DNA of 64,000 nt from the NCBI GenBank assembly GCA_964016885.1, contig OZ024744.1, positions 45,322,001 through 45,386,000 of the forward strand, written 5' to 3'. The position numbers and the translations under genes are program-made. Below the pieces are notes generated by a model. That model worked only from the letters and a program-made list of their open reading frames with translations, did not search any database and had not been told where the DNA came from. The first letter of the stretch is position 1, and each line of letters starts with the position of its first letter. Shown one piece after another: positions 1,931 to 48,936 of the stretch. This stretch comes from Eledone cirrhosa. Its lineage: Eukaryota.

Positions 1931-1949
1931 GGCGTCTGCAGCTGTATTT

Positions 1950-3680: not shown

Positions 3681-3699
3681 GCCCTCAGCGAAACTCTCT

Positions 3700-13012: not shown

Positions 13013-13059
13013 AGAACGTAGTTTTAACACTTCAAGATCCTAGTAGAAGCTAGCTGTAA

Positions 13060-15476: not shown

Positions 15477-15491
15477 CACCATCATTAATTC

Positions 15492-15670
15492 GTGGATTGG
15501 CAGTATCGGTAGAGGGTCGGACGCCATGCTTTCCAGCATAGTTACGTCCCTTTACCATCTGAGTTCAAATCCCGCCGAGGTTGACTTTGCATTTCATCCT
15601 TACGGGGTCGATAAAATAAAGTACCAGTAATGCACTGGTAATTGCTGGCCTTGTGCCTAAAGTAGAAACA
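15492..15670 (+). mobile_element. tRNA-derived SINE with TSD ATTAATTC
   Basis: Family match. TSD at 15484-15491 and 15671-15678. Absent from the paralogous arm at ~20455. Confidence 0.9.
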
Positions 15671-15751
15671 ATTAATTCAAGGGAATTAATTTGAAAAAAT
15701 ATAGGGGAAAGAACTTCCATTTGACATTACTTTCTCTGACTACAGTTTAAA

Positions 15752-16300: not shown

Positions 16301-16479
16301 GTTTGTTCTTAGATTCCAATGAAATAAACCCATAATGAGTGAGAAAAGCAAGCGACTATATTGCATTTCTTTAGTAATACCAAAGTAACTATTGATAATA
16401 ATAACACTAGTAATACTTCACTTAACCGTGAGTTGATCAATGAATCAGAGCCTCTACAGTCCACGTCAGGCAACAAGAG

Positions 16480-19400: not shown

Positions 19401-20370
19401 CCTGTTAGGGGTTGCACTCAGCTTTTGACCTGTGCGGATAGATTCTCCCGGTGGCCTGAGGTCATTCCCCTTTCCGACACTACAGCTGAATCTATTGCCA
19501 AGGCACTAGCACAGCATTGGATTTCGCGTTATGGCACACCTTCTACCAACACAATGGACAGAAGCGGCCAGTTCGAACCGAACCTTTTTAACAAATTGAC
19601 ACGCCTCCTAGGTTGTAGCCGAATAAATACAACAGCTTATCACCCTACAGCTAACGGTATGGTGGAACGTTTCCATCGGCAATTAAAATCTTCTCTCAGA
19701 GCATATGTCAACAACAACAACTTGTTAGACATTTTACCCCTTATCACTCTTGGAATTCGCTCCACTGTAAAAGAGGGACTCGGTTTTATGCCAGCTGCGC
19801 TGGTTTATGGCACGATATTGGTATTACCCGTCTCAACACCCCGTAGATCCAATGAAGTATATCTATCACCCGTGGACCCACATGGCAAACCTGCCATTTG
19901 TTGCCCCTCGGCCTCAAAGTAACACTATTCAAATTCCATCTGACATACAGCAATGGACAGACGTTTTTGTCAGAAAGGACGCTATCAGAGCTCCTTTGCA
20001 ACCAGGGCCCTACCAGGTACTCAAAAAGACACCCAAGCATTTTATCTTGGACACTGTCAGTGTCTACCGGCTAAAAAAAGCTCGTGTGGATTTCAATGGA
20101 CCCTAACTGTTAGACCAAGTTAACCTAACATCAACGCTCCCACCCACCGGCAATCCTAACTCTGTGCCAACAACATGAACGAGATCCGGTCGACATGTGT
20201 ACTGGCCATCTTCCTATGCCCAATATGTCGAGTAACAGTATCCTCTCTCTCTATTTACAAGGTAAGTAGGTGACAGTTTTTGGTCCGAGGTTATTGGTTC
20301 TCTATTTCACTACCGTTTCGATCTGGGCGGGGAACTAATATGGCGAAAAAATGTTCCAGCGTTTCTTCTG
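16480..20370 (+). mobile_element. Gypsy element 2 internal region (gag-PR-RT-RH-IN), heavily decayed, no 5' LTR, 3' LTR cut after ~30 bp
   Basis: gag ILKQLFLQRLL; PR FLVDTRVEV; [20 protein letters not shown]; RH YSTFGRE..NSAADALSR; IN ANGMVERFHRQLK. PPT GGGCGGGGAAC at ~20325. Confidence 0.9.
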
Positions 20371-20467
20371 TAATCCAGGTTTAAACCGTAGTCAGAGAAC
20401 GTAATGTCAAATAGAAGTTATTTCCCCTACATTTTTTCAAATTAATTCCCTTGAATTGACGATGGTG

Positions 20468-21036
20468 TGTAGCGAATGAAATGTTCCAGCGTTTCCTCTC
20501 ACTGACATGGCCATTCCTATGAAAGAGAACGCAGCGGGAGGTCATCGACCTTTGAGCAAAAATAACCAGCGTTCGATAACTAGGCTGTCATGGAACGAGG
20601 ACAGAGAGAGAATTTTCTGTTACAAAAGAGACGACACCTTCCCTGGTCACTTGGCTTTTAACTTCCTAGATGATAGTAATGACGGACGATAGCCTGCCAC
20701 CTTCTACTTCAGCATAACACATAAAACAAAGTATCTTCAACAAAACTTCAGCAACACGGTATTCATTTACGACTGTTTACGTACTTTTATGATTAGTAGT
20801 AATCATATTCCTTTTCTAACTGAAGTGAAGTACATTTTATATCTAACCGACATTAACTATTCTGTCCTGTTTATTTTCAACAACAACTACTAACCTAGTT
20901 TCACTTTAAATATCTGGGTGTTCTGTTTTAATATTGAAATCTGTCTCAGTCAGTGAATGAGATGGTCCACTTGCTAGAAATAGCAGCCGAATCCACTGCT
21001 TTTTCGGGTGGGGGACACACTTTATGTTCAGTGTTA
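20468..21036 (+). repeat. Solo LTR (Gypsy 2 family), right arm of inverted duplication
   Basis: Its start matches the LTR stub after the PPT at 20339. Ends TGTTA. No clean TSD seen. Confidence 0.8.
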
Positions 21037-21480
21037 GGACACCTTTTAAGCTACTCTCGTTCTTAGTTGACTTGCAGCTAAACAACCAGCACTAGCATCA
21101 ACAATAATAACAACAGTAAAACCACCACTAATAACAACTACAACATTACCACCACCACCACCACTACTACTACTACTACCACCACCACCACCACCACCAC
21201 CACTACCACCACCACCACCACAGTGGCTGATTTAAGGAATAGGGCCCAGTCGGCATTGGTCAGTAAGGAGGCCCCAGAGTGAAAATTAAAGTACCTTCTT
21301 TTCGAGCGAGTATTGAAAAAGTTGTTTTTTTTATTTCCCATTTAGCTACCAATAATCATTAAGAAGACAATTAAATTACAAGTACACTTTATTTGAAACA
21401 AACAAACAGATGTGCTGTACTGTAAACAAATAATAAAGTAATAAAGTTGTATATATGTTAGTCTTTTACACAAATTGCTT

Positions 21481-24132
21481 TTACATGCGCAGACCTCTGC
21501 GAGCTTTAACAGTTGAAAAATGAGTTATAGCGTGGTCCAAGTTTACTGATTTAGTAATTTTGTTTTCAATTGCCAGCAGGGCAAAACTGGATAGCCTCTC
21601 CTGGCCCATCGTTGAACGAAGATAATTTTTAATTCTTCGTAGAACACTGAAAGAGCGTTCCGCACTTGCTATGCTAATTGGTAAAGTGAGAAATAGCCTT
21701 ACCAGAATTTCAAACTCGGGAAAGACATCACACAAGTCATTGTTCGGTAAAAATTTCAGATATGGCATAACCCCACTTTGTTTTAAAGATGCGTTTGGCT
21801 GTGAAAAGTAGAGGCCAATGAAAGAAAAGAGTTCATTTCTGAGTTCCAGTGTGAATTCGTTTGAAAAGTTATCTACCAATGTTGCTACATGTGTTTTTAG
21901 TTCATCATCTGAGCATTTAGCCAGTCGATTTGGACTCAAAAATCCAAAGATTGAAGATATTTTGTTTATTCCTTCAGTTCGGGCTCTCATCTCCCCAATC
22001 ATACTATCCAGTGATTGAAAATAAATTGCAGTGCGATATCTATCTGAAGCAGTAGCTAGTCTTTCAACACCACAAACTTCACCATCCATAATCTTTCTTC
22101 TCCTTACTCGCGTTATTTTAAAATCAGCTTCAGATGCATCAAATCCCACGCCATTCCAGGCTTTCTTTTCCTGATCCACAAATTGTTCAAATTTGTGATC
22201 GCATCTGAGTTCTTCTAATTTATCTGTTGAACGTTCAAAGCACTCAGTCACAAGGAATAAATCAATTGTCTTAGCCTGTAAAAGACGATTAGCTGAATTC
22301 ATATTTTCTAACACTTTGTTCCACCAAAGTAGAGATAGGAAAAAAGTCCAGTCCATTTTCCCTTGCAAATCAGTTGCCTGTTTTACTTCATTTGAGTCAT
22401 GATTTTCTTCTATCAAATCTGCCAGACATTCACTGACATTGTGAAAGTTTCCCAGGAGAGCAGAAACTGCATTATGTCTGGCTGACCACCTTGTCTGAGA
22501 GAGTGATTTCAAGGTTCCGGATCTTGATGAGCCACATATATGCTCATCTTCAACTTCTTCGTCAATTGGATTAGAAATAACCTTCTCAACAGCTTCTAAA
22601 AGATTCTTCTCCTGACTTTTTGCCATATCAAGAAGTTGACTCCAGCGTCTATTTGAATTAACAAAGAAAGCATAGATAGATTGAATGTTATCAAAGAAGC
22701 ATTTAATTTCAACAAGAGGTGGAGGAGTACCACTTTGAGCTGCATGTTCAAGAACTAGATTGAGTTGGTGGGGAGGACAGTGAACATATGGAACAAAAGT
22801 ATTTCCGTCCAGTGCCATATTCTTTTTTAGTAAAGCTTGAACACCACCTAATGCCCCACTCATCACAGATGCTCCATCATATGCCTGTCCTTTAAGATGT
22901 TTGCGCTGCAAGCCAAGTTCTTCAAACAATGCCTTTTCAATGACACTGGTAATACCAATTGCACTAGCATCAAGGACATGATAATATCCAACAAAGTGTT
23001 CTACAATTTCCACTGACTTTTCAAGTCTGTCAATTTTTATAAATCTCAATAGCACCGCCATTTGGTCCTGATGACTTATATCAGTTGTAGAATCAGCAAT
23101 CACAGTGAACAATTTGGCTTCCTTGCAAAGATCAACAATTTTGTCAAGTGTCATTTTTGAAAGAATCTGGACTTGTTCCTCAAAGATAGTTTTGCTCAGA
23201 TATTTGAGTTGTCCCTTGTCCTCAAAATGTTGTTTAAGAATAGGATCGATTGTGCTTATGTGCCTTAATATTGATAAGTACACACCTGGATTATCAGCAT
23301 CCAAGGATTCTCTATGACCTCTTAGTGGCAATCCTAGACATGTAAGTTCTCGTAAAAGTCCGAACTGATGATTAAGAACATATTTCCATTTTTGAACTTC
23401 TGCATCCATTTGTTTTTTCACTGAAACTCCAATGGACATATTCTTAGCGAACTGTTTATAGGCATATACTGCTCTGTGATGAATTTTTGATTGAGAGTGT
23501 TTTTCAATGCTTTTGGAAATGTGCTTCCAATCATTCATACTCTTTGACCATGGCGAGTTTTTGGCCTCTTCATCACCAAATAACCAGCAATGATGGCAGT
23601 AACAATAATTACCTTTGTATGAATAAGCTAGCCAGTATCTGTGTACTCGTTCTTCGAGGGGGTTTTTAAAATTATAGTAACTGCTCTTGAATTTTCTAGA
23701 ATGGATAATGGGATAGTCTCCTGTAGGCATATCATTTTCCAAAGGTTGATAAGCACCCCTTTCAACTAAAATGTTCAAGTAATCTTTCACTTTATTCTTT
23801 CCTGTGTCAAATCGTGCTTTGTCATTTAAAAATGGCATTGAAGCCTGACTAATTTCAGAAAGTTCATTTTCAACTTCAGAAAGAATTATATTTTCTACAG
23901 CAGGTTCAGTCACTTGAGAAGGAAGCACAGGTTCAGCCACTTCAGGAATAGTTTCAGCTTCACCTGTAGATATTGTAGGAATATTTTCTTCTGCAACATC
24001 CTCAATATCTGCACTATGGGGCGCAGAAAAAGTCAATAATCTTTGATTTTTTGCTTTGCCTGCTGATTCCAAATCCTTTTTTCTTTTGAGTGCACGCTTC
24101 TCAGCACCTGATGAAAACTTCTTCTTATTCAT
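21481..24132 (-). CDS. hAT transposase, 883 aa (Tip100/ZMYM1-like: TTF-type zinc finger, DUF4371, C-terminal dimerisation domain)
   Basis: Uninterrupted ORF. WLAYS..CYCHHCWLF...HSQSKIH, LPLRGH, ADSTTD, YDGASVMSG, HCPPHQLNL, TRWSAR, SAERSFSVLRRIKNYLRSTMGQERLS. Confidence 0.95.
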   Translation of the reverse strand: MNKKKFSSGAEKRALKRKKDLESAGKAKNQRLLTFSAPHSADIEDVAEENIPTISTGEAETIPEVAEPVLPSQVTEPAVENIILSEVENELSEISQASMPFLNDKARFDTGKNKVKDYLNILVERGAYQPLENDMPTGDYPIIHSRKFKSSYYNFKNPLEERVHRYWLAYSYKGNYCYCHHCWLFGDEEAKNSPWSKSMNDWKHISKSIEKHSQSKIHHRAVYAYKQFAKNMSIGVSVKKQMDAEVQKWKYVLNHQFGLLRELTCLGLPLRGHRESLDADNPGVYLSILRHISTIDPILKQHFEDKGQLKYLSKTIFEEQVQILSKMTLDKIVDLCKEAKLFTVIADSTTDISHQDQMAVLLRFIKIDRLEKSVEIVEHFVGYYHVLDASAIGITSVIEKALFEELGLQRKHLKGQAYDGASVMSGALGGVQALLKKNMALDGNTFVPYVHCPPHQLNLVLEHAAQSGTPPPLVEIKCFFDNIQSIYAFFVNSNRRWSQLLDMAKSQEKNLLEAVEKVISNPIDEEVEDEHICGSSRSGTLKSLSQTRWSARHNAVSALLGNFHNVSECLADLIEENHDSNEVKQATDLQGKMDWTFFLSLLWWNKVLENMNSANRLLQAKTIDLFLVTECFERSTDKLEELRCDHKFEQFVDQEKKAWNGVGFDASEADFKITRVRRRKIMDGEVCGVERLATASDRYRTAIYFQSLDSMIGEMRARTEGINKISSIFGFLSPNRLAKCSDDELKTHVATLVDNFSNEFTLELRNELFSFIGLYFSQPNASLKQSGVMPYLKFLPNNDLCDVFPEFEILVRLFLTLPISIASAERSFSVLRRIKNYLRSTMGQERLSSFALLAIENKITKSVNLDHAITHFSTVKARRGLRM

Positions 24133-24262
24133 TGTGAGTCAGTCTACAAACAAAATATAAACTAGGTATAGGAAATAATAAAAGGAACTTACCAATTATT
24201 TGTTGCTTACACAATTTTAATGCTTTAATATTTTTAAACTGTGGCCCAATAAAACAAATTAC

Positions 24263-25593
24263 GGCGATATCCAAAAATACCTCCCCCATGCCTAGGGCTA
24301 AATAACTTCGCTGTTCGCTGCTGATATGAGGCTAAATAACTTCGCTGCTGAAATGAGGCTATTCCAACAAATTTACATTCCCTTTTTTTTTAGCCGTTAA
24401 AAGAAATATAGATTTATTTATTTATTTGAAACGTTTTTGTTAGTTTCTTTGTTTTGTTTTTTTGGCGATATTTTTGTTAGTTTCTTGGGGTTTTTTTTAG
24501 TTTCTTTTTTTTTTGGCGTTTTTGCCAGGTTTTTTTTTATAGATTTATTTATTTATTTTTAACGTTTTTGTTAGTTTTTGTTTTGTTTTTATGTCACAAA
24601 CATTGCTCTCCGACGCTCTACCGATAATAGTAAGTATTAGTGGTTGTAATAAAAATGCAATCAAAACGTAATAAATACCTTCACTGATTTCTTTCCTTAT
24701 ATTATCAACAGAAGTTGGTATGTCACCCAAAGTTTCTAATTCCTTCTCCACAGTAAGACAAATATCCATGTGTAGATGAAGAGGATAAGTATGAAAGAAC
24801 AGTCATTGGTAAAGTGTTCTATGAATGTTTTCGAACGAATGAAGAATTTCAGTTTAAAATCAATTTCACTTTAACTTGTTTGGGTATTTTCCATGAATTG
24901 GCATAACTAGCTCCCTGCTAAAGGTGAAATAACATAGTTCTGTTATCTTATAATTGATTTGTATATAAGTTAAAGTGAAATTGATTTTAAACTGAAATTA
25001 TTCATTCGTTCGAAAACATTCATAGAACACTTTACCAATGACTGTTCTTTCATACTTATCCTCTTCAACTACACATGGATATTTGTCTTACTGTGGAGAA
25101 GGAATTAGAAACTTTGGGTGACATACCAACTTCTGTTGATAATATAAGGAAAGAAATCAGTGAAGTATTTATTACATTTTGATTGCATTTTTATTACAAC
25201 CACTAATACTTACTATTATCGGTAGAGCGTCGGAGAGCAATGTTTGTGACATAAAAACAAAACAAAAACTAACAAAAACGTTAAAAATAAATAAATAAAT
25301 CTATAAAAAAAAAACTGGCAAAAAACGCCAAAAAAAAAAGAAACTAAAAAAAAAACAAGAAACTAACAAAAATATCGACAAAAAAACAAAACAATGAAAC
25401 CAACAAAAACGTTTCAAATAAATAAATAAATCTATATTTCTTTTAACGGCTAAAAAAAAGGGAATGTAAATTTGTTGGAATAGCCTCATTTCAGCAGCCA
25501 GCAGCCAGCAGCGAAGTTATTTAGCCTCATATCAGCAGCGAACAGCGAAGTTATTTAGCCCTAGGCATGGGGGAGGTATTTTTGGATATCGCC
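24263..25593. mobile_element. Non-autonomous foldback DNA transposon, Merlin-like
   Basis: Inverted arms 24263-24877 and 24967-25593 with an 89-bp loop. Termini GGCGATATCC...GGATATCGCC. 8-bp TSD CAAATTAC at 24255-24262 and 25594-25601. Confidence 0.85.
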
Positions 25594-25759
25594 CAAATTA
25601 CAATTTTTTTTTTTTTTGCAAGCGCCCAGTCGGCAGGGGCCCAGTCGGCATTTGCGACCTTCGCCACCTGTTAAATCCGCCACTGCACCACCACCACCAC
25701 AAACAACATCAACAACACTGACACAACAACACCACAAACAACAACAAAATAAAGAAATT

Positions 25760-26663
25760 TATTCAGTATACAAAATGTTGTCATTTAATAAAGGAAAAAG
25801 AAAAAAAAGAGATACAAACGAAATGAAGCAACGAACAGAGGGGAAGGATTAAAGAAGGGCAGATCTGACTGTATAGGAAAGTAGGAGAAAGGACTATAAA
25901 TGTTATAAATGAGAGGAAACGTAGGGTAAAACAAAGACTATGAGGTCACGGAAGAGGGAGGAGGGATAGGAGGGATGTCTGGGGTCAGGTGGTGTTTGGG
26001 CTGCACACCGCGGACAAAACTGCAAGGTCATTTCCGCGGACAATGGCCAGCTACACCGCTGCAACAGCCACTCCACCTAGCGGAGCTCCTTCTTCAGAGG
26101 GGCTACTGTTCTGATTTTACGGAGGAGCTTGGCAATACGGGGTCTGATGACGACTGAGTTCTTGACGGTGACCGGTGCAGAGAGGAAGTGGCCAGACAAG
26201 CCCCGGTATTTACTTGTCTTCCTATCCTCTGTATTGTGGGCCGAAATACCGGGGTTTGTGGCCAAAGAAACAAAATAGGGGCGGAGAACGTATTACAGCA
26301 TTTAGCATCTTAGATGAGGGATTTGCCTCCTTCCAATGAAAAGAGGGTAATTCCGTCGGGGCGCTTGCCATCTCTGCTGCCGAGGCTTGCTGGCTCCAGT
26401 TGTGATGGGAAACCAGCTGAATCCAGGGTCCTTCTTAATTTGTCATTGAGATCGGCATGTCGTTCTGGCGACATGATAGTGGATGCAGCCCAAACCCACC
26501 AACAACAGCCCCACAACAGTATTTATGTGAACCCCAAACGTGGAGGCCAGGGCGTTGGGTCACTCAGATGTGTGTGCACTCGTCATCAAGAAGGGTACCG
26601 GTTGATGAGGAGAGCACAGATTTGAGCAATGCATCGCTGTTTGGCTGCGAAACAGATCGGAGA
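25760..26663 (-). mobile_element. CRE-clade LINE 3' fragment (inverted paralogue of 14023-14735)
   Basis: [36 protein letters not shown]; the 3' UTR matches 14600-14730. Confidence 0.85.
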
Positions 26664-26740
26664 CAATATCTTGGACTTCCAACAAAAGTAAAATTACAGC
26701 ACCTACCTAATTCTTGTGCATTGAGTACTCCTTCCTTTAT

Positions 26741-26862
26741 GATCTGAGTTCAAATCCTGTCGAGGTTAACTTTGCCTTTCATCCTTACGGGCTCGATAAA
26801 ATAAAGTACCAGTAATGCACTGAGATAATTGCTGGCCTTGTGCCAAATGTAGAAACAGTTAT
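26741..26862 (+). mobile_element. 5'-truncated SINE
   Basis: Family match from the B-box onward. The corresponding empty site is visible at ~7650-7725. Confidence 0.85.
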
Positions 26863-27031
26863 TTACAGAACCTTTTAAAAGCGAATACTCTTCAACCCTA
26901 AACAAACATACAGCCTCTCGCTCTCTCTCTCTTTCTCTTTCTCGCTCTCTCTGCCTCTTTCTCTCTATTCTCTCTTTCTTCCATGTCCTCATCTCTTTCT
27001 CGCTCTATTTTTCTATATATATATATATATA

Positions 27032-27032
<1 letters not shown>

Positions 27033-27112
<80 letters not shown>
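27033..27112. repeat. (CA)n microsatellite, adjacent to (CT)n and (TA)n tracts
   Basis: Directly visible. Confidence 0.95.
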
Positions 27113-27116
<4 letters not shown>

Positions 27117-27260
27117 TATCTCACTTTGGCAGTGTTGGTGGGAGAGAGCTGTGATAGTAAGAAGAGTACAGACAACAGTGACAGTAGGAGTAAGGTGTGT
27201 GACGTCATAAGATGGACGCTGTGGAAAGTTTTGAGATAGGTGGGTTGGTAGGGAGGTATA

Positions 27261-27500
27261 TCTACTATAGAAGTCCCGTTCTGTCTGTCTGTGTAAAGTA
27301 TTATAACTTGCGTATTGTTCATCGATCTCGCTAAAATGTTACACATTGCCAAAGGAGGATGCGAGACGTGTCAATAACAACTAATTATTGCATAATTGTT
27401 ACTTTCAAAGTGATAATCGCCATGTTTCTAATACTTGTGTGTCTTTGCGTTAAAACATTTCCATTAGAACTGCCGTAAGCAGGAACCCGGCTGAGAAAGA
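27261..27500 (+). mobile_element. Possible Helitron 5' end
   Basis: A^TCTACTATA start followed by (CTGT)n, as in many invertebrate non-autonomous Helitrons. No 3' hairpin-CTAG end identified. Confidence 0.35.
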
Positions 27501-28291
27501 GAAGGAAGTAGAAAGTGCAGAGTAGAAGAGAGAGAGGGACAGAAAAAGAAAGAGAGAGAATGTCTATAGGAGGGAAACAGCGAGAGAAAGAAAGAGACAA
27601 AGAAAGGGGGGGGGGGGGGGAGAGAAAGAGAAGGCTATGTGAGACAAGGGACTGGCAAAATGAGAGAGAAAGAAGAAGCTGTGTGAGAGGGGAAAGAAAG
27701 AGAGAGAGTGAGACAGTAAGTAACCACATGTTGTGAGAAGAGAAGCAGACGACAAGATAAAACATTAAACACGATATTAGAAAAATATTTTTCTAAATAT
27801 GGCAATATGTTATATATACATACATGCATAGATAAATCTACATATACAATTGCATGTGTATAGTAAAGAATATATGTGTATGTACGCATATGAAAACACG
27901 TATACATAAATGAAGGTAGAAGTAAAATACGTATATAGTAGTTGATAGACGACTATATACGCACATATAAATAAGAATATATAGATACATTAAAATATAA
28001 AAATGAAATGGTAAAATAATATAATAAAACGGAAAAAATGAAACGAAATTTCATTTCCCGCTCTTAGTACGGCTGTTAGTTAAATATAAGTATGTACACG
28101 TACATACATATATGTATACAGACGTACAGTAGTATGTATATATATATACATACATGCACCATTATATATATGTACGTATAGATTCACGAAACATTTATTA
28201 TAATGCTCGGTGTGTTTGTAAACAAACATCCCATATTAAGCCGTAGTGTACAGCAACCATCGTTGCTCGTTTGTTCAACACTGACAAAGGA

Positions 28292-28334
28292 ACGCTGTAC
28301 TAGTTTCAAGCTTATTAACTATCGTCAGCAACGT
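28292..28334 (-). ncRNA. Minimal type I hammerhead ribozyme in the inverted block
   Basis: On -: ACGTTG CTGACGA TAGTT AATA AGCTT GAAACTAGTA CAGCGT. Confidence 0.85.
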
Positions 28335-29090
28335 ATACCTTCCTGCCAGATTGTTGAACGTATATACTTACCTTCTGCATATTAACTGCTGCGTAGCCCA
28401 ATTTGCATATTGAGTGGGTTGATCGGCCGGGTGCATCGAAAACGATAAACGGAAAAAATGAAACGAAATTTCATTTCCCACTCTTAGTACGGCTGTGACT
28501 TAAATAGAAGTATGTACCCGTATATACATATATGTATACGGGCGTACAGTAGTATGTATATATATATATATATACATACATGCACACATATATATATGTA
28601 CGTATGGATTCACCGAACATTTATTATAATGCACGGTGTGTTTGTAAACAAACATCCAGTATTAAGCCGTAGTGTCCAGCAATCATCGTTGCTCGTTTGT
28701 TCAACACGTGTACATACTTATATTTAAGTAACAGTCGTACGAAGAGTGGGAAATGAAATTTCGTTTCATTTTTACCGTTTATCGTTTTCGGTGCACCCGG
28801 CCGATTGACCCACTCGATATGCAAATTGGGCTACACAGCCGTTAATATGCATAACGTAAGTATATACGTTCAACAATCTGTATATATATACAACTATGTA
28901 TATACGTGTACATACTTATATTTAAATAACAGCCGAACTAAGAGTGGGAAATGAAATTTCGTTTCATTTTTTCCGTTTATCGTTTTCAGTGCACCCGGCC
29001 GATTAACCCACTCGATATGCAAATTGGGCTACTCAGGCGTTAATATGCATAATGTAGGTATATACGTTCAACAATCTGGCAGGAAGGTAT

Positions 29091-32000
29091 ACGTTGCTGG
29101 CGATAGCTAATAAGCTTGAAACTAGTACAGCATTTCTTCGTCAGTGTTGAACAAACGAGCAACGATGATTTCTGGACACTACGGCTTAATACGGGATGTT
29201 TGTTTACAAACACACCGAACATTATAATAAATGTTCGGTGAATCCATACGTACATATATATATGTGTGCATGTATGTATATATATACATACTACTGTACG
29301 TCTGTATACTTATATGTATGTACATGTACATACTTATATTTAAGTAACAGTCGAACTAAGAGTGGGAAATGAAATTTCGTTTCATTTTTGCAATTTATCG
29401 TTTTCGTTGTACCCGGCCGATTAACCCACTCGATATGCAAATTAGGCTACTCAGCCGTTAATATGCATAAGGTAAGTATATACGTTCAACAATCTGGCAG
29501 GAAGGTATACGTTGCTGACGATAGCTAATAAGCTTGAAACTAGTACAGCGTTCCTTTGTCAGTGTTGAACAAACGAGCAACAATGGATGCTGGACACTAC
29601 GACTTAATACGGGATGTTTGTTCATAAACACACCGAGCATTATCATAAATGTTCAGTGAATCCATACGTACATATATATATGTGTGTGCATGTATGTATA
29701 TATATATACATACTATTGTACTTCCGTATACATATGTTTATGTATGTGTACATACTTATATTTAAGTAACAGTCGAACTAAGAGTGGGAAATGAAATTTC
29801 GTTTCATTTTTTCCATTTATCGTTTTCGTTGCACCCGGCCGATAACCCACTCGATATGCAAATTGGGCTACTCAGCCGTTAATATGCATGAGGTAAGTAT
29901 ATACGCTCAACAATCTGGCAGGAAGGTATACGTTGCTGACGATAGTTATTAAGCTTGAAACTAGTACAGCGTTCCTTTGTCAGTGTTGAACAAACGAGCA
30001 ACGATGGTTTTTGACAGTCCGGCTTAATACGGGATGTTTGTTTACAAACACACCGAACATTATAATAAATGTTCGGTGAATGCATACGTACATATATATA
30101 TATGTCTGTGCATGTATGTATATATATATACATGCTACTGTACGTCTGTATCCATATATGTATGTACGTGTACATACTTATATTTAAGTAACAGCCGAAC
30201 TAAGAGTGGGAAATGAAATTTCGTTTCATTTTTTCCGTTTATAGTTTTGGGTGCACCCGGTCGATTAACCCGCTCGATATGCAAATTGGGCTACTCAGCC
30301 GTTAATATGCATGAGGTAAGTATATACGCTCAACAATCTGACAGGAAGGTATACGTTGCTGACGATAGCTATTAAGCTTGAAACTAGTACAGCGTTCCTT
30401 TGTCAGTGTTGAACAAACGAGCAACGATGGTTACTGGACACTACATCTTAATACGGGATGTTTGTTTACAAACACAACGAGCACTATAATATATGTTCGG
30501 TGAATCCATACGTACATATATATATGTGTGCATGTATGTATATATATATACATACTACTGTACGTCCGTATACAAATATGTATATACCTGTACATACTTA
30601 TATTTAAATAACAACCGAACTAAGAGTGGGAAATGAAATTTCGTTTCATTTTTTCCGTTTATCGTTTTCAGTGCACCCGGCCGATTAACCCACTCGATAT
30701 GCAAATTGGGCTACTCAGCCGTTAATATGCATAATGTAAGTATATACGTTCAACAATCTGGCAGGAAGGTATACGTTGCTGGCGATAGCTAATAAGCTTG
30801 AAACTAGTACAGCGTTCCTTTGTCAGTGTTGAACAAACGAGCAATGATGATTTCTGGACACTACGGCTTAATACGGGATGTTTGTTTACAAACACACCGA
30901 ACATTATAATAAATGTTCGGTGAATCCATACGTACATATATATATGTGTGCATGTATGTATATATATACATACTACTGTACGTCTGTATACTTATATGTA
31001 TGTACATGTACATACTTATATTTAAGTAATAGCCGTACGAAGAGTGGGAAATGAAATTTCGTTTCATTTTTACCGTTTATGTTTTTCGTTGCACCCGGCC
31101 GATTAACCCACTCGATATGCAAATTGGGCTACTCAGCCGTTAATATGCATAAGGTAAGTATATATGTTCAACAATCTGGCAGGAACGTATACGTTGCTGA
31201 CGATAGCTAATAAGCTTGAAACTAGTACAACATTTCTTTGTCAGTGTTGAACAAACGAGCAACGATGGTTGCTGTACATTATGGCTTAATACGGGATGTT
31301 TGTTTACAAACACAGTGAGCATTATAATAAATGTTCGGTGAATCCATACGTACATATGTATATGTGTGCATGTATGTATATATATATACATAGTACTGTA
31401 CGTCTGAATACATATATGTATGTACGTGTACATATTATATTTAAGTAACAGCCGTACTAATAGTGGGAAATGAAATTTCGTTTCATTTTTTCCGTTTATC
31501 GTTTTCGGTGCACCCGGCCGATTAACCCACTCGATATGCAAATTAGGTTACTCAGCCGTTAATATGCATAAGGTAAGTATATATGTTCAACAATCTGGCA
31601 GGAAGGTATACGTTGCTGACGATAGCTAATAAGCTTGAAACTAGTACAGCGTTCCTTTGTCAGTGTTGAACAAATGAGCAACGAATGGTTTTTGACAGTA
31701 CGGCTTAATACGGGATGTTTGTTTACAAACACACCGAACATTATAATAAATGTTCGGTGAATCCATACGTACATATATATATATGTCTGTGCATGTATGT
31801 ATATATATATACATGCTACTGTACGTCTGTATCCATATATGTATGTACCTGTACATACTTATATTTAAGTAACAGCCGTACTAATAGTGGGAAATGAAAT
31901 TTCGTTTCAATTATTCCGTTTATCGTTTTCGGTATACACGTCCGATTAACCCACTCGATATTCAAATTGGGCTACTCAGCCGTTAATATGCATAAGGTAA

Positions 32001-35000
32001 GTATATATGTTCAACAATCTGGCAGGAAGGTATACGTTGCTGACGATAGCTAATAAGCTTGAAACTAGTACAGCGTTCCTTTGTCAGTGTTGAACAAACG
32101 AGCAACGATGGTTGCTGGACACTACATCTTAATACGGGATGTTTGTTTACAAACACGCTGAGCATTATAATAAATGTTCGGTGAATCCATAGGTACATAT
32201 ATATGTGTGCATGTATGTATATATATATACATACTACTGTACGTCCGTATACATATATGTATATACCTGTACATACTTATATTTAAGTAACAGCCGAACT
32301 AAGAGTGGGAAATGAAATTTCGTTTCATTTTTTCCCTTTATCGTTTTCGGTGCACCCGGCCGATTAACCCACTCGATATGCAAATTGGGCTACTCAGCCG
32401 TTAATATGCATAAGGTAAGTATATACGTTCAACAATCTGGCAGGAAGGTATACGTTGCTGGCGATAGCTAATAAGCTTGAAACTAGTACAGCATTTCTTC
32501 GTCAGTGTTGAACAAACGAGTAACAATGGTTGCTGTACACTACTGCTTAATACGGGATGTTTGTTTACAAACACAGTGAGCATTATAATAAATGTTCGGT
32601 GAATCTATACGTACATATATATATGTGTGCACGTATGTATATATATATACATAGTACTGTACGTCTGAATACATATATGTATGTACGTGTACATACTTAT
32701 ATTTAAGTAACAGCCGTACTAATAGTGGGAAATGAAATTTCGTTTCATTTTTTCCGTTTATCATTTTCGGTGCACCCGGCCGATTAACCCACTCGATATG
32801 CAAATTAGGTTACTCAGCCGTTAATATGCATAACATAAGTATATATGTTCAACAATCTGGCAGGAAGGTATACGTTGCTGACGATAGCTAATAAGCTTGA
32901 AACTAGTACAACATTTCTTTGTCAGTGTTGAACAAACGAGCAACGATGGTTGCTGTACATTATGGCTTAATACGGGATGTTTGTTTACAAACACAGTGAG
33001 CATTATAATAAATGTTCGGTGAATCCATACGTACATATGTATATGTGTGCATGTATGTATATATATATACATAGTACTGTACGTCTGAATACATATATGT
33101 ATGTACGTGTACATACTTATATTTAAGTAACAGCCGTACTAATAGTGGGAAATGAAATTTCGTTTCATTTTTTCCGTTTATCATTTTCGGTGCACCCGGC
33201 CGATTAACCCACTCGATATGCAAATTAGGTTACTCAGCCGTTAATATGCATAACATAAGTATATATGTTCAACAATCTGGCAGGAAGGTATACGTTGCTG
33301 ACGATGGCTAATAAGCTTGAAACTAGTACAGCGTTCCTTTGTCAGTGTTGAACAAACGAGCAACGATGATTTCTGGACACTACGGCTTAATACGGGATGT
33401 TTGTTTACAAACACACCGAACATTATAATAAATGTTCGGTGAATCCATACGTACATATATATATGTGTGCATGTATGTATATATATACATACTACTGTAC
33501 GTCTGTATCCTTATATGTATGTACGTGTACATACTTATATTTAAGTAACAGCCGTACTAAGAGTGGGAAATGAAATTTCGTTTCATTTTTTCCGTTTATG
33601 TATTTCGTTGCACCCGGCCGATTAACCCACTCGATATGCAAATTGGGCTACTCAGCCGTTAATATGCATTAGGTAAGTATATACGTTCAACAATCTGGCA
33701 GGAAGGTATACGTTGCTGGCGATAGCTAATAAGCTTGAAACTAGTACAGCGTTCCTTTGTCAGTGTTGAACAAACGAGCAACGATGATTTCTGGACACTA
33801 CGGCTTAATACGGGATGTTTGTTTACAAACACACCGAACATTATAATAAATGTTCGGTGAATCCATACGTACATATATATATGTGTGCATGTATGTATAT
33901 ATATACATACTACTGTACGTCTGTATACTTATATGTATGTACATGTACATACTTATATTTAAGTAACAGCCGTACTAAGAGTGGGAAATGAAATTTCGTT
34001 TCATTTTTTCCGTTTATGTTTTTCGTTGCACCCGGCCGATTAACCCACTTGATATGCAAATTGGGCTACTCAGCCGTTAATATGCATAAGGTAAGTATAT
34101 ACGTTCAACAATCTGGCAGGAAGGTATACGTTGCTGGCGATAGCTAATAAGCTTGAAACTAGTACAGCGTTCCTTTGTCAGTGTTGAACAAACGAGCAAC
34201 GAATGGTTTTTGACAGTACGGCTTAATACGGGATGTTTGTTTACAAACACACCGAACATTATAATAAATGTTCGGTGAATCCATACGTACATATATATAT
34301 ATGTCTGTGCATGTATGTATATATATATACATGCTACTGTACGTCTGTATCCATATATGTATGTACCTGTACATACTTATATTTAAGTAACAGCCGTACT
34401 AATAGTGGGAAATGAAATTTCGTTTCAATTATTCCGTTTATCGTTTTCGGTATACACGTCCGATTAACCCACTCGATATTCAAATTGGGCTACTCAGCCG
34501 TTAATATGCATAAGGTAAGTATATATGTTCAACAATCTGGCAGGAAGGTATACGTTGCTGACGATAGCTAATAAACTTGAAACTAGTACAGCGTTCCTTT
34601 GTCAGTGTTGAACAAACGAGCAACGATGGTTGCTGGACACTACATCTTAATACGGGATGTTTGTTTACAAACACGCTGAGCATTATAATAAATGTTCGGT
34701 GAATCCATAGGTACATATATATGTGTGCATGTATGTATATATATATACATACTACTGTACGTCCGTATACATATATGTATATACCTGTACATACTTATAT
34801 TTAAGTAACAGCCGAACTAAGAGTGGGAAATGAAATTTCGTTTCATTTTTTCCGTTTATCGTTTTCGGTGCACCCGGCCGATTAACCCACTCGATATGCA
34901 AATTGGGCTACTCAGCCGTTAATATGCATAAGGTAAGTATATACGTTCAACAATCTGGCAGGAAGGTATACGTTGCTGGCGATAGCTAATAAGCTTGAAA

Positions 35001-38000
35001 CTAGTACAGCATTTCTTCGTCAGTGTTGAACAAACGAGTAACAATGGTTGCTGTACACTACTGCTTAATACGGGATGTTTGTTTACAAACACAGTGAGCA
35101 TTATAATAAATGTTCGGTGAATCTATACGTACATATATATGTGTGCACGTATGTATATATATATACATAGTACTGTACGTCTGAATACATATATGTATGT
35201 ACGTGTACATACTTATATTTAAGTAACAGCCGTACTAATAGTGGGAAATGAAATTTCGTTTCATTTTTTCCGTTTATCGTTTTCGTTGCACCCGGCCGAT
35301 GAACCCACTCGATATGCAAATATGGGCTACGCAGCCGTTAATATGCATAAGGTAAGTATATACGTTCAACAATCTGGCAGGAAGGTATACGTTGCTGACA
35401 ATAGATAATAAGCTTGAAACTAGTACAGCGTTCCTTTGTCAGTGTTGAACAAACGAGCAACGATGGTTTCTGGACACTACGGCTTAGTACGGGATGTTTG
35501 TTTACAAACACACCGAACATTATAATAAATGTTCGGTGAATCCATACGTACATATATATATATGTCTGTGCATGTATGTATATATATATACATGCTACTG
35601 TACGTCTGTATCCATATATGTATGTACGTGTACATACTTATATTTAAGTAACAGCCGTACTAATGGTGGGAAATGAAATTTCGTTTCAATTATTCCGTTT
35701 ATCGTTTTCGGTATACACGTCCGATTAACCCACTCGATATTCAAATTGGGCTACTCAGCCGTTAATAAGCATAAGGTAAGTATATATGTTCAACAATCTG
35801 GCAGGAAGGTCTACGTTGCTGACGATAGCTAATAAGCTTGAAACTAGTACAGCGTTCCTTTGTCAGTGTTGAACAAACGAGCAACGATGGTTGCTGGACA
35901 CTACATCTTAATACGGGATGTTTGTTTACAAACACGCTGAGCATTATAATAAATGTTCGGTGAATCCATAGGTACATATATATGTGTGCATGTATGTATA
36001 TATATATACATACTACTGTACGTCCGTATACATATATGTATATACCTGTACATACTTATATTTAAGTAACAGCCGAACTAAGAGTGGGAAATGAAATTTC
36101 GTTTCAATTTTTCCGTTTATCGTTTTCGGTATACCCGTCCGATTAACCCACTCGATATGCAAATTGGGCTACTCAGCCGTTAATATGCATAAGGTAAGTA
36201 TATACGTTCAACAATCTGGCAGGAAGGTATACGTTACTGACGATAGCTAATAAGCTTGATACTAGTACCGCGTTCCTTTGTCAGTTTTGAACAAACGAGC
36301 AACGATGGTTGCTGGACACTACGGCTTAATACAGGATGTTTGTTTACAAACACACCGAGAATTATAATATATGTTCGGTGAATCCATACGTAAATATATA
36401 TATGTGTGCATGTATGTATATATATATACATACTATTGTACTTCCGTATACATATATGTATGTATGTGTACATACTTATATTTAAGTAACAGCCGAACTA
36501 AGAGTGGGAAATGTAATTTCGTTTCTTTTTTCCGTTTATCGTTTTCAGTGCACCCGGCCGATTAACCCACTCCATATGCAAATTGGGCTACTCAGCCGTT
36601 AATATGCATAAGGTAAGTATATACGTTCAACAATCTGGCAGGAAGGTATACGTTACTGACGATAGCTAATAAGCTTGAAACTAGTACCGCGTTCCTTTGT
36701 CAGTTTTGAACAAACGAGCAACGATGGTTGCTGGACACTACGGCTTAATACAGGATGTTTGTTTACAAACACACCGAGAATTATAATATATGTTCGGTGA
36801 ATCCATACGTAAATATATATATGTGTGCATGTATGTATATATATATACATACTATTGTACTTCCGTATACATATATGTATGTATGTGTACATACTTATAT
36901 TTAAGTAACAGCCGAACTAAGAGTGGGAAATGTAATTTCGTTTCATTTTTTCCGTTTATCGTTTTCAGTGCACCCGGCCGATTAACCCACTCCATATGCA
37001 AATTGGGCTACTCAGCCGTTAATATGCATAAGGTAAGTATATACGTTCAACAATCTGGCAGGAAGGTATACGTTGCTGGCGATAGCTAATAAGCTTGAAA
37101 CTAGTACAGCATTTCTTTGTCAGTTTTGAACAAGCGAGTAACAATGGTTGCTGTACACTACGGCTTAATACGGGATGTTTGTTTACAAACACAGTGAGCA
37201 TTATAATAAATGTTCGGTGAATCTATACGTACATATATATATGTGTGCACGTATGTATATATATATACATAGTACTGTACGTCTGAATACATATACGTAT
37301 GTACGTGTACATACTTATATTTAAGTAACAGCGGTACTAAGAGTGCGAAATGAAATTTCGTTTCAATTATTCCGTTTATCATTTTCGGTATACACGTCCG
37401 ATTAACCCACTCGATATTCAAATTGGTCTACTCAGCCGTTAATATGCATAAGATAAGTATAAATGTTCAACAATCTGGCAGGAAGGTATACGTTGCTGAC
37501 GATAGCTAATAAGCTTGAAACTAGTACAGCGTTCCTTTGTCAATGTTGAACAAACGAGCAACGAATGATTTTTGACAGTACGGCTTAATATGGGATGTTT
37601 GTTTACAAACACACCGAACATTATAATAAATGTTCGGTGAATCCATACGTACATATATATATATATGTCTGTGCATGTATGTATATATATATACATGCTA
37701 CTGTACGTCTGCATCCATATATGTATGTACGTGTACATACTTATATTTAAGTAACAGCCGTACTAAGAGTGGGAAATGAAATTTCGTTTCAATTATTCCG
37801 TTTATCGTTTTCGGTATACACGTCCGATTAACCCACTCGATATTCAAATTGGGCTACTCAGCCGTTAATATGCATAAGGTAAGTATATATGTTCAACAAT
37901 CTGGCAGGAAGGTATACGTTGCTGACGATAGCTAATAAGCTTGAAACTAGTACAGCGTTCCTTTGTCAGTGTTGAACAAACGAGCAACGATGGTTGCTGG

Positions 38001-39217
38001 ACACTACATCTTAATACGGGATGTTTGTTTACAAACACGCTGAGCATTATAATAAATGTTCGGTGAATCCATAGGTACATATATATGTGTGCATGTATGT
38101 ATATATATATACATACTACTGTACGTCCGTATACATATATGTATATACCTGTACATACTTATATTTAAGTAACAGCCGAACTAAGAGTGGGAAATGAAAT
38201 TTCGTTTCATTTTTTCCGTTTATCGTTTTCGGTGCACCCGGCCGATTAACCCACTCGATATGCAAATTAGGTTACTCAGCCGTTAATATGCATAAGATAA
38301 GTATATATGTTCAACAATCTGGCAGGAAGGTATACGTTGCTGACGATAGCTAATAAGCTTGAAACTAGTACAGCGTTTCTTTGTCAGTGTTGAACAAACG
38401 AGCAACGATGATTTCTGGACACTACGGCTTAATACGGGATGTTTGTTTACAAACACACCGAACATTATAATAAATGTTCGGTGAATCCATACGTACATAT
38501 ATATATGTGTGCATGTATGTATATATACTTACATACTACCGTACGTCTGTATACATATATGTTTGTACGTGTACATACTTATATTTAAGTAACAGCCGTA
38601 CTAAGAGTGGGAAATGAAATTTCGTATCATTTTTTCCGTTTATCGTTTTCGTTGCACCCGGCCGATGAACCCACTCGATATGCAAATATGGGCTACTCAG
38701 CCGTTAATATGCATAAGGTAAGTATATACGTTCAACAATCTGGCAGGAAGGTATACGTTACTGACGATAGCTAATAAGCTTGAAACTAGTACCGCGTTCC
38801 TTTGTCAGTTTTGAATAAACGAGCAACGATGGTTGCTGGACACTACGGCTTAATACAGGATGTTTGTTTACAAACACACCGAGAATTATAATATATGTTC
38901 GGTGAATCCATACGTAAATATATATATGTGTGCATGTATGTATATATATATACATACTATTGTACTTCCGTATACATATATGTATGTATGTGTACATACT
39001 TATATTTAAGTAACAGTCGAACTAAGAGTGGGAAATGACATTTCGTTTCATTTTTTCCATTTATCGTTTACGTTGCACCCGGCCGATTAACCCACTCGAT
39101 ATGCAAATTGGGCTACTCAGCCGTTAATATGCATAAGGTAAGTATATACGTTCAACAATCTGGCAGGAAGGTATACGTTGCTGACGATAGCTAATAAGCT
39201 TGAAACTAGTACAGCGT
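29091..39217 (+). ncRNA. 25 tandem minimal type I hammerhead ribozyme motifs, 43 nt each
   Basis: Starts at 29091, 29509, 29930, 30353, 30773, 31191, 31610, 32034, 32452, 32872, 33292, 33710, 34128, 34552, 34970, 35389, 35813, 36231, 36650, 37070, 37490, 37916, 38334, 38755, 39175. Consensus: stem I ACGTTG/CAGCGT, core CTGACGA, stem II AGCT-AATA-AGCT, GAAA, stem III ACTAGT, cleavage triplet GTA. Confidence 0.9.
29509..29551 (+). ncRNA. Representative intact hammerhead ribozyme; predicted cleavage after 29545
   Basis: ACGTTG CTGACGA TAGCT AATA AGCTT GAAAC TA GTA CAGCGT. Confidence 0.9.
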
Positions 39218-39275
39218 TCCTTTGTCAGTGTTGGACAAACGAGGAAAGATGGTGAAATTATAAAATCAGAAAAAC

Positions 39276-39387
<112 letters not shown>

Positions 39388-39388
<1 letters not shown>

Positions 39389-40322
39389 CGGTATGTACAC
39401 ATTTCTTTTAAGTTTGAATTTACACCAAATTGTGTATGGTTGATTGTATATTTGGTCAGTTTCTACATGCTGTCGAAATGTTGGATAAATACTCTATTGA
39501 GGCCACCGCGAAGAGGCCACTTTCGTTTGTTTGTCGGAGATTTCTTCATAGGAGCCTTTATCCTTATAGCTTGGTCTAATTGATTTTTTTATATGGTTAA
39601 TTATGCTCATTGGCAGAGGAAATTATATATATTTTATTTATTTAATAATTCTATAGACATGATTTATGATATATTGCTCTGATTATTTAATTTATTAATT
39701 CTTCATAGAGCCACATAGTGACCGGTTGTAACATATATAACTTTATGTATATGTGAACCTTTATATTTAATAATCTCCCGTCAGGTTGAGATGCAATTTG
39801 GCGATATTTGGCTGCGCTTTCTAGCAACAAGCCTACCCGCCGTAAGCAACCAATCACATTCTTTCCAACTTGACCACGGCCATATTGTGATTCTAAGCCT
39901 TTTTCGAATCTAATTTTGGCGCGATCGCTTTGGAATACTAAGTGTCTATTTTTGAGTTTGTCTCCTGATGAATCCGAACTCTGTGGATTTCCTATTAATT
40001 GGATATCTAAAAATACGGATGAAACCATGGTCGAGATATAGTTACGGTATGTACACATTTCATCTAAGTTTGAATTTACACCAAATTGTGTATGCTTGAT
40101 TGTATATTTGGTCAGTTTCTACATGCTGTCGAAATGTTGGATAAATACTCTATTGAGGCCACCGCGAAGAGGCCACTTTCGTTTGTTTGTCGGAGATTTC
40201 TTCATAGGAGCCTTTATCCTTATAGCTTGGTCTAATTGATTTTTTTATATGGTTAATTATGCTCATTGGCAGAGGAAATTATATATATTTTATTTATCTA
40301 ATAATTCTATAGACATGATTTA

Positions 40323-48472: not shown

Positions 48473-48886
48473 ATAACAGATTAAAGTTTAAGCAAAGAAT
48501 CGCTGCTTTCACCCTTAACGGGATCTTCTGAAACTAACAAAGTCAATCTGTAAACGCAGGACTGGATATTTCAAAAAACGTTGCAACCGGAGGAAGACAG
48601 GAAGACGATACTTTGGTTCGTGGAAACGTTCGCTGGCTAAGAACGGGAAAAAACGAATATAATACGTCATTAATAGGAGCGGTGAAAAACAATTACGCGC
48701 AAAGACAGAACCACGTTTATGGTATAATAGAGGTCGTAGACTAATGTTCTCTTAGGTGGTGCATAGAGACGTTCTCTCTGACTGATCAGCCAGTCTGCTA
48801 ATATGCAAATCAAGCCGATCAGTCAGTGTATATTTTAGAAAATAGCATATATTTTCTCTAGTTCTGACAGTTGGTAGGTGAACAGT

Positions 48887-48936
48887 GAGCTGTACTGATG
48901 AAGGGTGATACCCAGAAACATTAGTGTCTGCAGTTC
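48887..48936 (+). ncRNA. Type I hammerhead ribozyme
   Basis: Stem I GAGCTGTA/TGCAGTTC (8 bp with G.U), CTGATGA, stem II GGGT-GAT-ACCC (A.A at base), GAAA, stem III ACA-TTAG-TGT, triplet GTC (cut after 48928). Confidence 0.8.

Follow-up and report, generated by a model that had tools for sequence, protein, structure and literature searches.

The window analysed here is a stretch of 64,000 nucleotides from the genome of Eledone cirrhosa (contig OZ024744.1, positions 45,322,001 to 45,386,000), and it holds an array of hammerhead-bearing tandem units built as two arms that meet head-to-head at 28707/28708. The features, in window coordinates and with those that recur in every unit given for one example, are as follows:

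28027..28707, minus strand: inverted arm of 1.6 units, starting at about unit position 222, its outward end at unit position 58, the 3' end of 'tail' type
28328-28298 and 28409, minus strand: hammerhead core and promoter-like box of the inverted arm, one each
28708..39243, plus strand: forward arm; after an incomplete first unit that bears a deletion, 24 full units (418-426 bp each) starting at 28921
29434..29446, plus strand: octamer-containing box of unit 2, matching the -77 box of host U6, U6atac and RNase MRP genes
29476..29483, plus strand: TATA-like element, 42 bp past the box, with a predicted start at ~29507, on the 5' border of the hammerhead
29484..29570, plus strand: extended stem I, which would hold both termini of a cut unit side by side; pairing preserved across subfamilies
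29509..29551, plus strand: type I hammerhead of unit 2 (one of 25), with stem I at 29509-14/29546-51, core at 29515-21, stem II at 29523-34, GAAA, a palindromic helix III stub at 29539-44 and a predicted cut after 29545
30183..30242, plus strand: example 'tail' segment in unit 4, the 59-60 bp between two 3' ends that are fixed genome-wide
39276..39388, no strand: (TA)n tract, 33 bp past the array and of the family's target type

An earlier note had read 28027..39243 as one tandem array of ~420-bp monomers with 25 hammerhead ribozymes on the forward strand. The repeat and the count both hold: TRF gives a period of 418 bp (24.7 copies, 92% matches, 28887-39253; 36% GC), and the motif recurs 25 times on the plus strand, with first core bases from 29097 to 39181. 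The span stands from 28708 onward, whereas 28027-28707 lies on the opposite strand as the inverted arm and bears the 26th hammerhead. The deletion in the first forward unit is internal, near 28880, and the last unit stops at unit position 239, outside both fixed 3' ends, which is a secondary truncation. The stop-to-stop frames within 28027-39243 are all shorter than 150 aa, and an ORF for reverse transcriptase (RT) and GIY-YIG is absent.

All of the type I hammerhead parts described previously are present (6-bp stem I, CUGANGA, U.U, 4-bp stem II and GAAA), and in unit 2 the last base of the GUA triplet is 29545, as claimed; the extension of stem I is likewise real, but runs further than had been proposed, across 29484-29570. 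Overlooked at that stage was helix III: the AC-UA-GU that follows GAAA is a self-complementary hexamer, unable to close a hairpin, and in the minimum-energy fold of a single copy the CUG of the core pairs with UAG instead. As helix III is a palindromic stub of 1-2 bp, cleavage probably requires dimers, with energy prediction putting a double hammerhead at -19.4 kcal/mol and two copies folded singly at -2.6 kcal/mol. The unit from one cleavage site to the next, folded as a circle, is predicted to reach -121.9 kcal/mol (z -7.1), and none of 60 shuffles was equally stable. The core is intact in 17 of the 26 copies, including runs of consecutive units such as 21-25, and altered in the other nine (seven A6G, one G8A and one A14U).

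A check against RF00163, suggested by the earlier note, fails: at the gathering score Rfam returned no match over the whole window, and at E<=10 none of the 68 matches in 29000-30500 was to a hammerhead family, the sub-threshold miRNA matches being rejected as driven by microsatellites. The identification rests on the core, the stems and the conservation of pairs. The caution once attached to the U.U at the base of stem II carries little weight, since the same mismatch occurs in PLE (Penelope-like element) hammerheads of the Eledone cirrhosa genome and in axolotl HHR_Amex2, which is described as cleaving (PMC7229834).

Beyond the window, the exact 31-nt core pattern has 24,749 matches genome-wide and the reversed pattern none, in support of the type I reading that core, stems and GUA already favoured. 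A search pattern that kept helix III but changed stem II matched 10 times, in each case a mutant of the array's own family, and there were no matches in viral contigs. Between subfamilies A and B the hammerhead is 91% identical and the box 100%, against 64% in mid-unit. Across 10 hand-picked and related copies pairing is held in 97.8% of 269 cells and falls to 32-44% when partners are slid out of register. Two pairs are altered on both sides, one of them in stem I (U.G / G.U / A-U); as 260 of 500 shuffles equal a count of two covarying pairs, covariation is modest. Within the array the ribozyme shows no excess conservation (12 alleles over its 43 columns, 140 over the other 377, p 0.42). Copies are dispersed through the genome as monomers to multimers, with a hammerhead in each low-GC tandem unit of the 150-450 bp class and at least two consecutive intact copies, and the family is best read as a non-LTR retrozyme, much as had been surmised.

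How such copies reach new sites is recorded in their ends. A census of 55 insertion loci, sampled via the hammerhead, yielded 100 arms, 72 of which end at two fixed 3' sites 59 bp apart; (TA)n adjoins 65 of these 72. Thirty head-to-head pairs occur in 28 loci, and where both ends are canonical the two arms combine a tail with a no-tail end in 18 of 19 pairs. Truncation at the 5' side of dispersed copies is random. Of the 62 mapped 5' ends none lies at the cleavage site, and five gather weakly at the predicted start (unit positions 165-175, Poisson p 0.025); ends also cluster at 93-94. As truncations do not gather at the cut site, cleaved or circular RNA is not supported here as the template. 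Target-site duplications are unreadable because the flanks are (TA)n. Together with the genome-wide core matches, this end anatomy bears out the earlier proposal that the family spreads in trans as a retroelement.

One could object that a DNA element would serve as well, for Helitron/Helentron-derived and MITE-like elements can seed satellites, and the unit is hairpin-rich and AT-rich with microsatellite stretches, so that a hammerhead-like motif might have arisen by chance. This is hardly credible given that the core is complete and correctly spaced, that the stems are compensated, and that two fixed 3' ends go with random 5' ends and one-sided tails; moreover, no terminal inverted repeat marks both ends, nor are the ends of the CTRR type that is the Helitron end motif.

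The ends of the family instead suggest that PLEs insert its copies. They match the anatomy described for PLEs (PMC8557442) and agree with the report that a purified PLE primes at two sites on both strands (PMC11167929). The Eledone cirrhosa genome is rich in PLEs (10,597 GIY-YIG candidates, 150 of them scored), frames with RT and GIY-YIG are present, and one of its PLE families has two 3' ends ~61 nt apart at (TA)n. Neither an autonomous PLE carrying the array's unit nor homology to a PLE pseudo-LTR was found in 60 GIY-YIG loci of 6 clusters among those candidates. Copies near PLE frames were rejected as autonomous partners, being nested insertions in (TA)n, and a resemblance of the tail to the 3' end of one PLE family was discarded once the two ends of that family had been mapped.

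If PLEs are the mobilisers, the ribozyme might be a mere passenger, derived from a PLE pseudo-LTR and cutting little or not at all, with uncleaved linear read-through RNA as the template and circles irrelevant. The lack of 5' ends at the cut site and their weak cluster at the predicted start would fit, as would the absence of excess conservation within the array; purified anole PLE is reported to use uncleaved RNA and to insert without need of its own hammerhead (PMC11167929), and eight of nine predicted Xenopus dimers are reported to have failed to cleave (10.64898/2026.07.22.740005). We nevertheless regard this as unlikely, since core and pairing are preserved between subfamilies whose mid-unit identity is only 64%, the circular unit folds far better than shuffles, and the extended stem I closes its junction.

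The length of the array has a separate history. It had been called unusually long, which is not borne out: a paralogous insertion (a duplication or an uncollapsed haplotype) with the same flank and the same junction holds at least 102 units, and published hammerhead arrays extend to 62 and 300 units. Nor does it appear to be a single retrotransposition product, as a fresh arm has a median of ~1.1 units. A single event of rolling-circle reverse transcription on a circular unit would agree with the retrozyme model as published (PMC7761336), and some dispersed arms do contain 4-7 or more units, but as the source of the whole array this is very unlikely. Units that differ by ~30 substitutions fall in near-identical, mosaic groups (8/14/17/22; 9/15; 18/19/24). 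Between the window and the paralogue the unit count of the same insertion goes from 25 to at least 102 and the inverted arm from 1.6 to 0.6 units, and A6G, found in 7 of the 26 units of the window, is missing from all 44 motifs read in the paralogue. A one-event origin is thus largely refuted for the present length and possible for the first few units; judged from these sequence comparisons, array length is a product of later growth at the DNA level and not of the original insertion.

Each unit also looks to carry a putative U6-type promoter of its own. The octamer is intact in 21 of 26 boxes on the plus strand, and the predicted start corresponds to about unit position 170 in subfamily A and 162 in B and C. 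Box and TATA are 42 bp apart in subfamilies A and B and 43-45 bp in a second hammerhead family, against 46-48 bp in host genes, so that the block is 5 bp short of host-type spacing. With a wider spacing range, chosen after inspection of the sequence, the block scores 27.8-28.5 bits, compared with 22-27 for host genes each left out in turn, and is equalled by none of 200 shuffles; the box alone is likewise equalled by 0/200. At native spacing the score is not significant, being reached by 11-29 of 200 shuffles. A masked background of 1.0 Mb contained one box and no box with TATA, and the box is absent from all 10 U1/U2 upstream regions searched. The second hammerhead family is otherwise dissimilar, and its best local match to the unit is the promoter block itself (64% over 56 nt, E 0.13).

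Which polymerase would read such a block is less clear-cut. The tail of unit 4 contains a hairpin and a T6 run (30229-30234), and the first run of T4 or longer lies 299 nt past the predicted start (p 0.067 for subfamily A, 0.34 for B and 0.12-0.24 for the second family); a Pol III terminator at the tail was rejected as not significant, and the minus strand is without a T4 run. Every unit has a run of T6-T8, the expected Pol III stop, which multi-unit copies nevertheless cross. TCAG at -56 and TATA at -30 share the register of U1/U2, but a Pol II promoter of snRNA type is not upheld: the element scores 0.7 bits, and the composite is matched by 42-57 of 200 shuffles in A and B and, for the second family, by 2/200 (the copy in the window) and 194/200 (the L048 copy). 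It is retained as a weak hint.

Taken together, we consider it likely that the array goes back to a single insertion of a non-coding retrozyme of non-LTR type, itself non-autonomous, that uses the RT/GIY-YIG protein of a PLE. Firstly, units would be transcribed into multimeric RNA, probably aided by the built-in upstream-type promoter, whose box and TATA would aim the start at the 5' edge of the hammerhead; box and TATA are in the sequence, and activity and choice of polymerase are conjectural. Secondly, adjacent hammerheads would pair through the palindromic helix III into a double hammerhead and cut after GUA, releasing circularisable units of ~420 nt, as predicted structure and amphibian precedent would have it. 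Thirdly, a PLE protein would cut both strands of a (TA)n target and start reverse transcription from two fixed positions within the unit (about 1 and 60), which are 59 nt apart and would each serve one strand, and the two 5'-truncated cDNAs, joined head-to-head, would give one arm with a tail and one without; the signature in the genome is plain and the enzyme is deduced from it. Finally, the short insertion would have grown by local unequal exchange to 25 units here and to at least 102 in the duplicated copy, without selection on the ribozyme, a process proposed from the patterns among units.

Much of this is familiar from metazoan non-LTR retrozymes, which are described as having a type I hammerhead in each low-GC tandem unit of 150-450 bp and no ORF, as dispersing from monomers to multimers with a well-paired predicted circle, and as sharing their genomes with PLEs (PMC7229834; 10.64898/2026.07.22.740005). 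In contrast to the retrozymes of a review that presents them as apparently lacking a promoter (PMC7761336), the Eledone unit contains a U6-like box and TATA, and the link to PLEs comes here from the anatomy of insertion ends and not from pseudo-LTR homology. By description, newt satellite 2 and axolotl Rtz331/Rtz353 also form dispersed tandem arrays (PMC2114352; PMC7229834), with units of 330-350 bp against 420-500 bp here. A weak palindromic helix III that requires dimers is reported for axolotl HHR_Amex1 and U.U at the base of helix II for HHR_Amex2 (PMC7229834), two traits united in one Eledone ribozyme. Against the proposed reading, only one of nine predicted Xenopus dimers is reported to have cleaved in vitro (Li, Clavereau & Pollet 2026, 10.64898/2026.07.22.740005). 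For newt satellite 2 the reported snRNA-type promoter is a Pol II one (PMC2220036), whereas the Eledone box matches that of host Pol III genes and is absent from U1/U2. Schistosoma SM-alpha and Dolichopoda pDo500 are likewise described as satellites bearing hammerheads; SM-alpha is said to be transcribed by Pol III from an internal promoter (PMC2220036), unlike the upstream (type 3) candidate found here. PLEs with a C-terminal GIY-YIG, and MRC1, share with the family 5' truncation, partial tandems, an inverted 5'-truncated copy, a one-ended tail, AT-rich or (TA)n targets and a hammerhead in the repeat, as far as they are described (PMC8557442; PMC11167929; PMC4209133). The Eledone family differs in being without an ORF, in a tail of 59-60 bp against the 30-40 bp described, in having no autonomous relative among the 60 GIY-YIG loci of 6 clusters, and in a hammerhead of canonical type (helix I of 6 bp, helix II of 4 bp) where PLEs have the minimal one.

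Hammerhead satellites have been known since 1987, and the array alone is a further member of that class. For the mobiliser of animal retrozymes, on the other hand, the case made so far relies on co-occurrence and on similarity to pseudo-LTRs (10.64898/2026.07.22.740005; PMC7761336), and here the insertion ends of a ~25,000-copy family can be read directly as PLE target priming, with the two RNA sites named. The combination of PLE-type ends with a U6-like block was not found in the open-access literature searched, and supplements may list the family or the promoter. Box and TATA, retained across the subfamilies as well as in a second family, are a precise, mutable promoter candidate and a possible reason for the tandem form. 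More tentatively, the family may be a self-promoting retrozyme that captured a U6-like promoter in each unit, with its start at the hammerhead's 5' edge and with tail/no-tail pairs that record dimeric PLE priming. As a U6-like promoter lies outside its own transcript, it would be copied only via read-through multimers or circles. If this is true, the need for a multimer or circle explains both the tandem form and the retention of a dimer-gated ribozyme, the strict pairing of tail with no-tail ends records how, in vivo, a dimeric PLE enzyme primed two strands at two RNA sites, and one promoter design is common to two otherwise dissimilar hammerhead families of this genome.

The array at 28027-39243 is probably a copy of a non-LTR retrozyme that was moved by the protein of a Penelope-like element (PLE) and now grows as a neutral satellite. 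In the window, C28:45,322,001-45,386,000 of a 3.0-Gb assembly, TRF places 24.7 copies of its 418-bp repeat at 28887-39253; BLAST with a reference unit (29339-29757, from whose first base unit positions are counted) resolves the layout as follows.

Array units (BLAST of the reference unit) and further hammerhead copies, in window positions unless prefixed
28027-28707, reverse strand: inverted arm, 1.6 units
Forward-arm start, forward strand: first unit, partial, with an internal deletion
From 28921, forward strand: 24 full units
Forward-arm end, forward strand: last unit, cut at unit position 239
48760-49110, forward strand: copy of a second hammerhead family (box 48802-48814; hammerhead 48888-48936)
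C28:45,615,200-45,669,500 (loci L237-L242): second copy of the insertion, matching window 12251-28700 at 94-97% identity

The earlier note's count of 25 forward-strand hammerhead motifs was reproduced, and its tandem array stands for the forward arm; 28027-28707 is instead an inverted arm, and there is one further motif on the reverse strand. No frame of 150 aa was found in the array region. Elsewhere, fragments of LTR elements, a hAT transposase and further satellites occupy the window: disrupted frames of LTR retrotransposons (with RT, RNase H, integrase and DUF7041) at 593-4609 (-) and 16498-19922 (+); a hAT transposase frame of 885 aa at 21481-24138 (-); a 20-bp purine/pyrimidine-skewed satellite with 650 copies at 51126-64000, continuing beyond the window end, and a 44-copy patch near 5720-6612, within 5335-6612; and a 70-bp minisatellite at 11065-12153. 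Directly right of the array a ~280-bp direct duplication (39389-39660, 40043-40320) is visible by eye, with (TA)n beside each copy.

Each unit's motif combines helix I (6 bp), CUGACGA, a U.U, helix II (4 bp, A-rich loop), GAAA, a self-complementary ACUAGU hexamer and GUA; the predicted cut comes directly after GUA, whose last base is 29545 in unit 2. Cervera & de la Pena (PMC4209133) ascribe the same design to most metazoan hammerheads, with helices I and II of 6 and 4 bp and a helix III of 1-2 bp with a small palindromic loop; such hammerheads cleave poorly singly and are active as dimers. By secondary-structure energies only, a single copy prefers a CUG/UAG-pairing fold (-8.1 vs -1.3 kcal/mol for the hammerhead), and two copies give a double hammerhead at -19.4 vs -2.6 kcal/mol, an alternative two-strand fold being slightly lower (-20.7). 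These energies agree with the dimer-active design, and the array hammerheads would be expected to cleave as dimers. Folded as a circle, a unit taken cleavage-to-cleavage reaches -121.9 kcal/mol (z -7.1), and the units may yield circular RNA. The U.U at the base of helix II, formerly raised as a caveat, recurs in axolotl HHR_Amex2 and in PLE hammerheads of the same genome; Rfam, proposed as a check, did not recognise the motif.

Across 10 hand-picked copies from several subfamilies, pairing was kept in 97.8% of 269 cells, with both-sided changes in two pairs (U.G / G.U / A-U in helix I, and one extension pair), against 32-44% for slid partners; because the copies are related, this conservation is supportive and not a probability. 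Single representatives of subfamilies A and B share 91% identity in the hammerhead, 90% in the 3' extension, 100% in the box and 64% at positions 236-330. Against conservation, 9/26 hammerheads within the array carry core changes, and variation in the ribozyme equals that in the remaining unit (p 0.42). In the main rival account, which we consider unlikely, the family moves in the same way with the ribozyme as a passenger.

The further genomic copies previously suggested are plentiful, with 24,749 exact matches to a 31-nt core pattern and none to the reversed control. Insertion ends were taken from 55 loci (17 of 30 earlier loci, overlaps dropped, plus 38 from the first 100 matches listed), all within the first 22 Mb of sequence C1 and located via an intact core, with microsatellite-only matches removed. 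Among 100 arms, 3' ends fell at unit position ~1 (38), ~60 (34), ~49 (4, variants with a broken T run) or elsewhere (24), and (TA)n adjoins 65 of 72 canonical ends. The two fixed ends bound a tail of 59-60 bp, and 28 loci held 30 head-to-head pairs. The tail is on exactly one arm in 18 of the 19 pairs with both ends canonical, the lone exception (L235) having an arm that extends beyond the reference unit; with a duplicated pair in one locus, 17 are independent (~8e-6 at even odds). The 62 mapped 5' ends are scattered across the unit (median arm ~1.1 units), none at the cut site (position 208), with five at 165-175 and five at 93-94, the latter directly before the promoter-like box. A short inverted element at L046:5953-6160, with a 3' hairpin resembling the tail and (TA)n at its end, is perhaps a more distant family.

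Craig et al. (PMC8557442) describe PLEs by the same traits, namely truncated 5' ends, partial tandem copies, inversion of a truncated copy, an often one-ended tail and microsatellite targets. In the work of Frangieh et al. (PMC11167929), a purified PLE cleaved and extended the two strands of its target and took uncleaved RNA as template, on which it initiated at two internal positions delimiting the tail. The genome holds 10,597 GIY-YIG candidates as well as RT + GIY-YIG frames, and one PLE family (L036) has two 3' ends ~61 nt apart. Minimal hammerheads occur in PLE families (L036, L037, L045, L047; L107, L119, L126; L039, L040, L043, L051), all with palindromic helix III stubs and two with a U3-A8 core swap. 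Among 60 GIY-YIG loci of 6 clusters, no autonomous element with the same unit was found. Rather than being an autonomous PLE, the array's family behaves as a non-autonomous one; we infer a PLE enzyme as its mobiliser. On every sequence feature tested, it matches the retrozyme kind.

Units diverge by a mean of 4% from consensus, with ~30 substitutions between units; some are near-identical, 1-4 substitutions apart (8/14/17/22; 9/15), and others mosaic. The same insertion recurs ~276 kb away, its left flank 94-97% identical, lacking the hAT stretch (window ~21190-25680), and its junction the same, with an inverted arm of 0.6 unit and a forward arm of at least 102 units; it may be a duplication or an uncollapsed haplotype. 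A6G occurs in 7/26 units of the window array and 0/44 motifs read in the second copy. The near-identical and mosaic units, the longer second copy and the A6G contrast therefore indicate growth after insertion. Given that copy and published arrays of up to 62 units in coral and 300 in beetle, the claim of unusual length does not hold.

Upstream (5') of each hammerhead lies a box, TATGCAAATT(A/G)GG, followed 42 bp further by GTATATA. Host U6 genes (L148, L149, L150 array) carry this box at positions -76 to -78 and a TATA at position -30, and box and TATA also precede RNase MRP (1/1) and U6atac (1/5). The box is absent from 14 lower-scoring U6 and 4 U6atac loci, many of which lie within microsatellites and look like retrocopies, and from U1/U2 upstream regions (0/10); 1.0 Mb of masked background held one, without TATA. 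On a matrix from the five box-bearing host promoters, which score 22-27 bits when left out in turn, the unit scores 27.8-28.5 bits (0/200 shuffles as high; box alone 0/200). Its box-TATA spacing is 5 bp shorter than the host genes', and the composite score at the native 46-48 spacing was not significant. Host snRNA promoters share a distal motif near -230 to -290 (L148, L149, L150, L176, L177; L056-L067; L162-L165, L195); those of U1/U2 have TCAG at -56 to -58 and a TATA-like element at -30, the octamer box occurring only before U6, U6atac and MRP. An octamer could also be just an enhancer site, and it is repeated in the second family. Judged from sequence, transcription beginning 30 nt after the TATA would start level with the 5' border of helix I in subfamily A; in B and one second-family copy, the start would precede the cut by 47-48 nt. 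Pol III would be expected to stop at the T6-T8 runs of the tail, yet multi-unit copies cross them.

The second family (1,104 exact core matches, some ~440 bp apart in tandem or inverted) has G-C at the base of helix II, a longer helix III and (TA)n flanks; a similar box, a TATA-like element and repeats of octamer-like sites lie upstream. Aligned locally, the two families match best in the promoter-like block (64% over 56 nt, E 0.13); the L048 copy scores weakly on the matrix (17/200 shuffles).

Retrozymes seem to lack promoters, according to one review (PMC7761336), while promoters are reported, second-hand through PMC2220036, for two hammerhead satellites, snRNA-type Pol II in newt and Pol III in schistosome. 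Transcription of this family may start from the block. The supplements of the cited papers could already list the family and, were the block not a promoter, it would simply be another member of the retrozyme kind; its novelty rests on the promoter-like block and the strict asymmetry of the tail.
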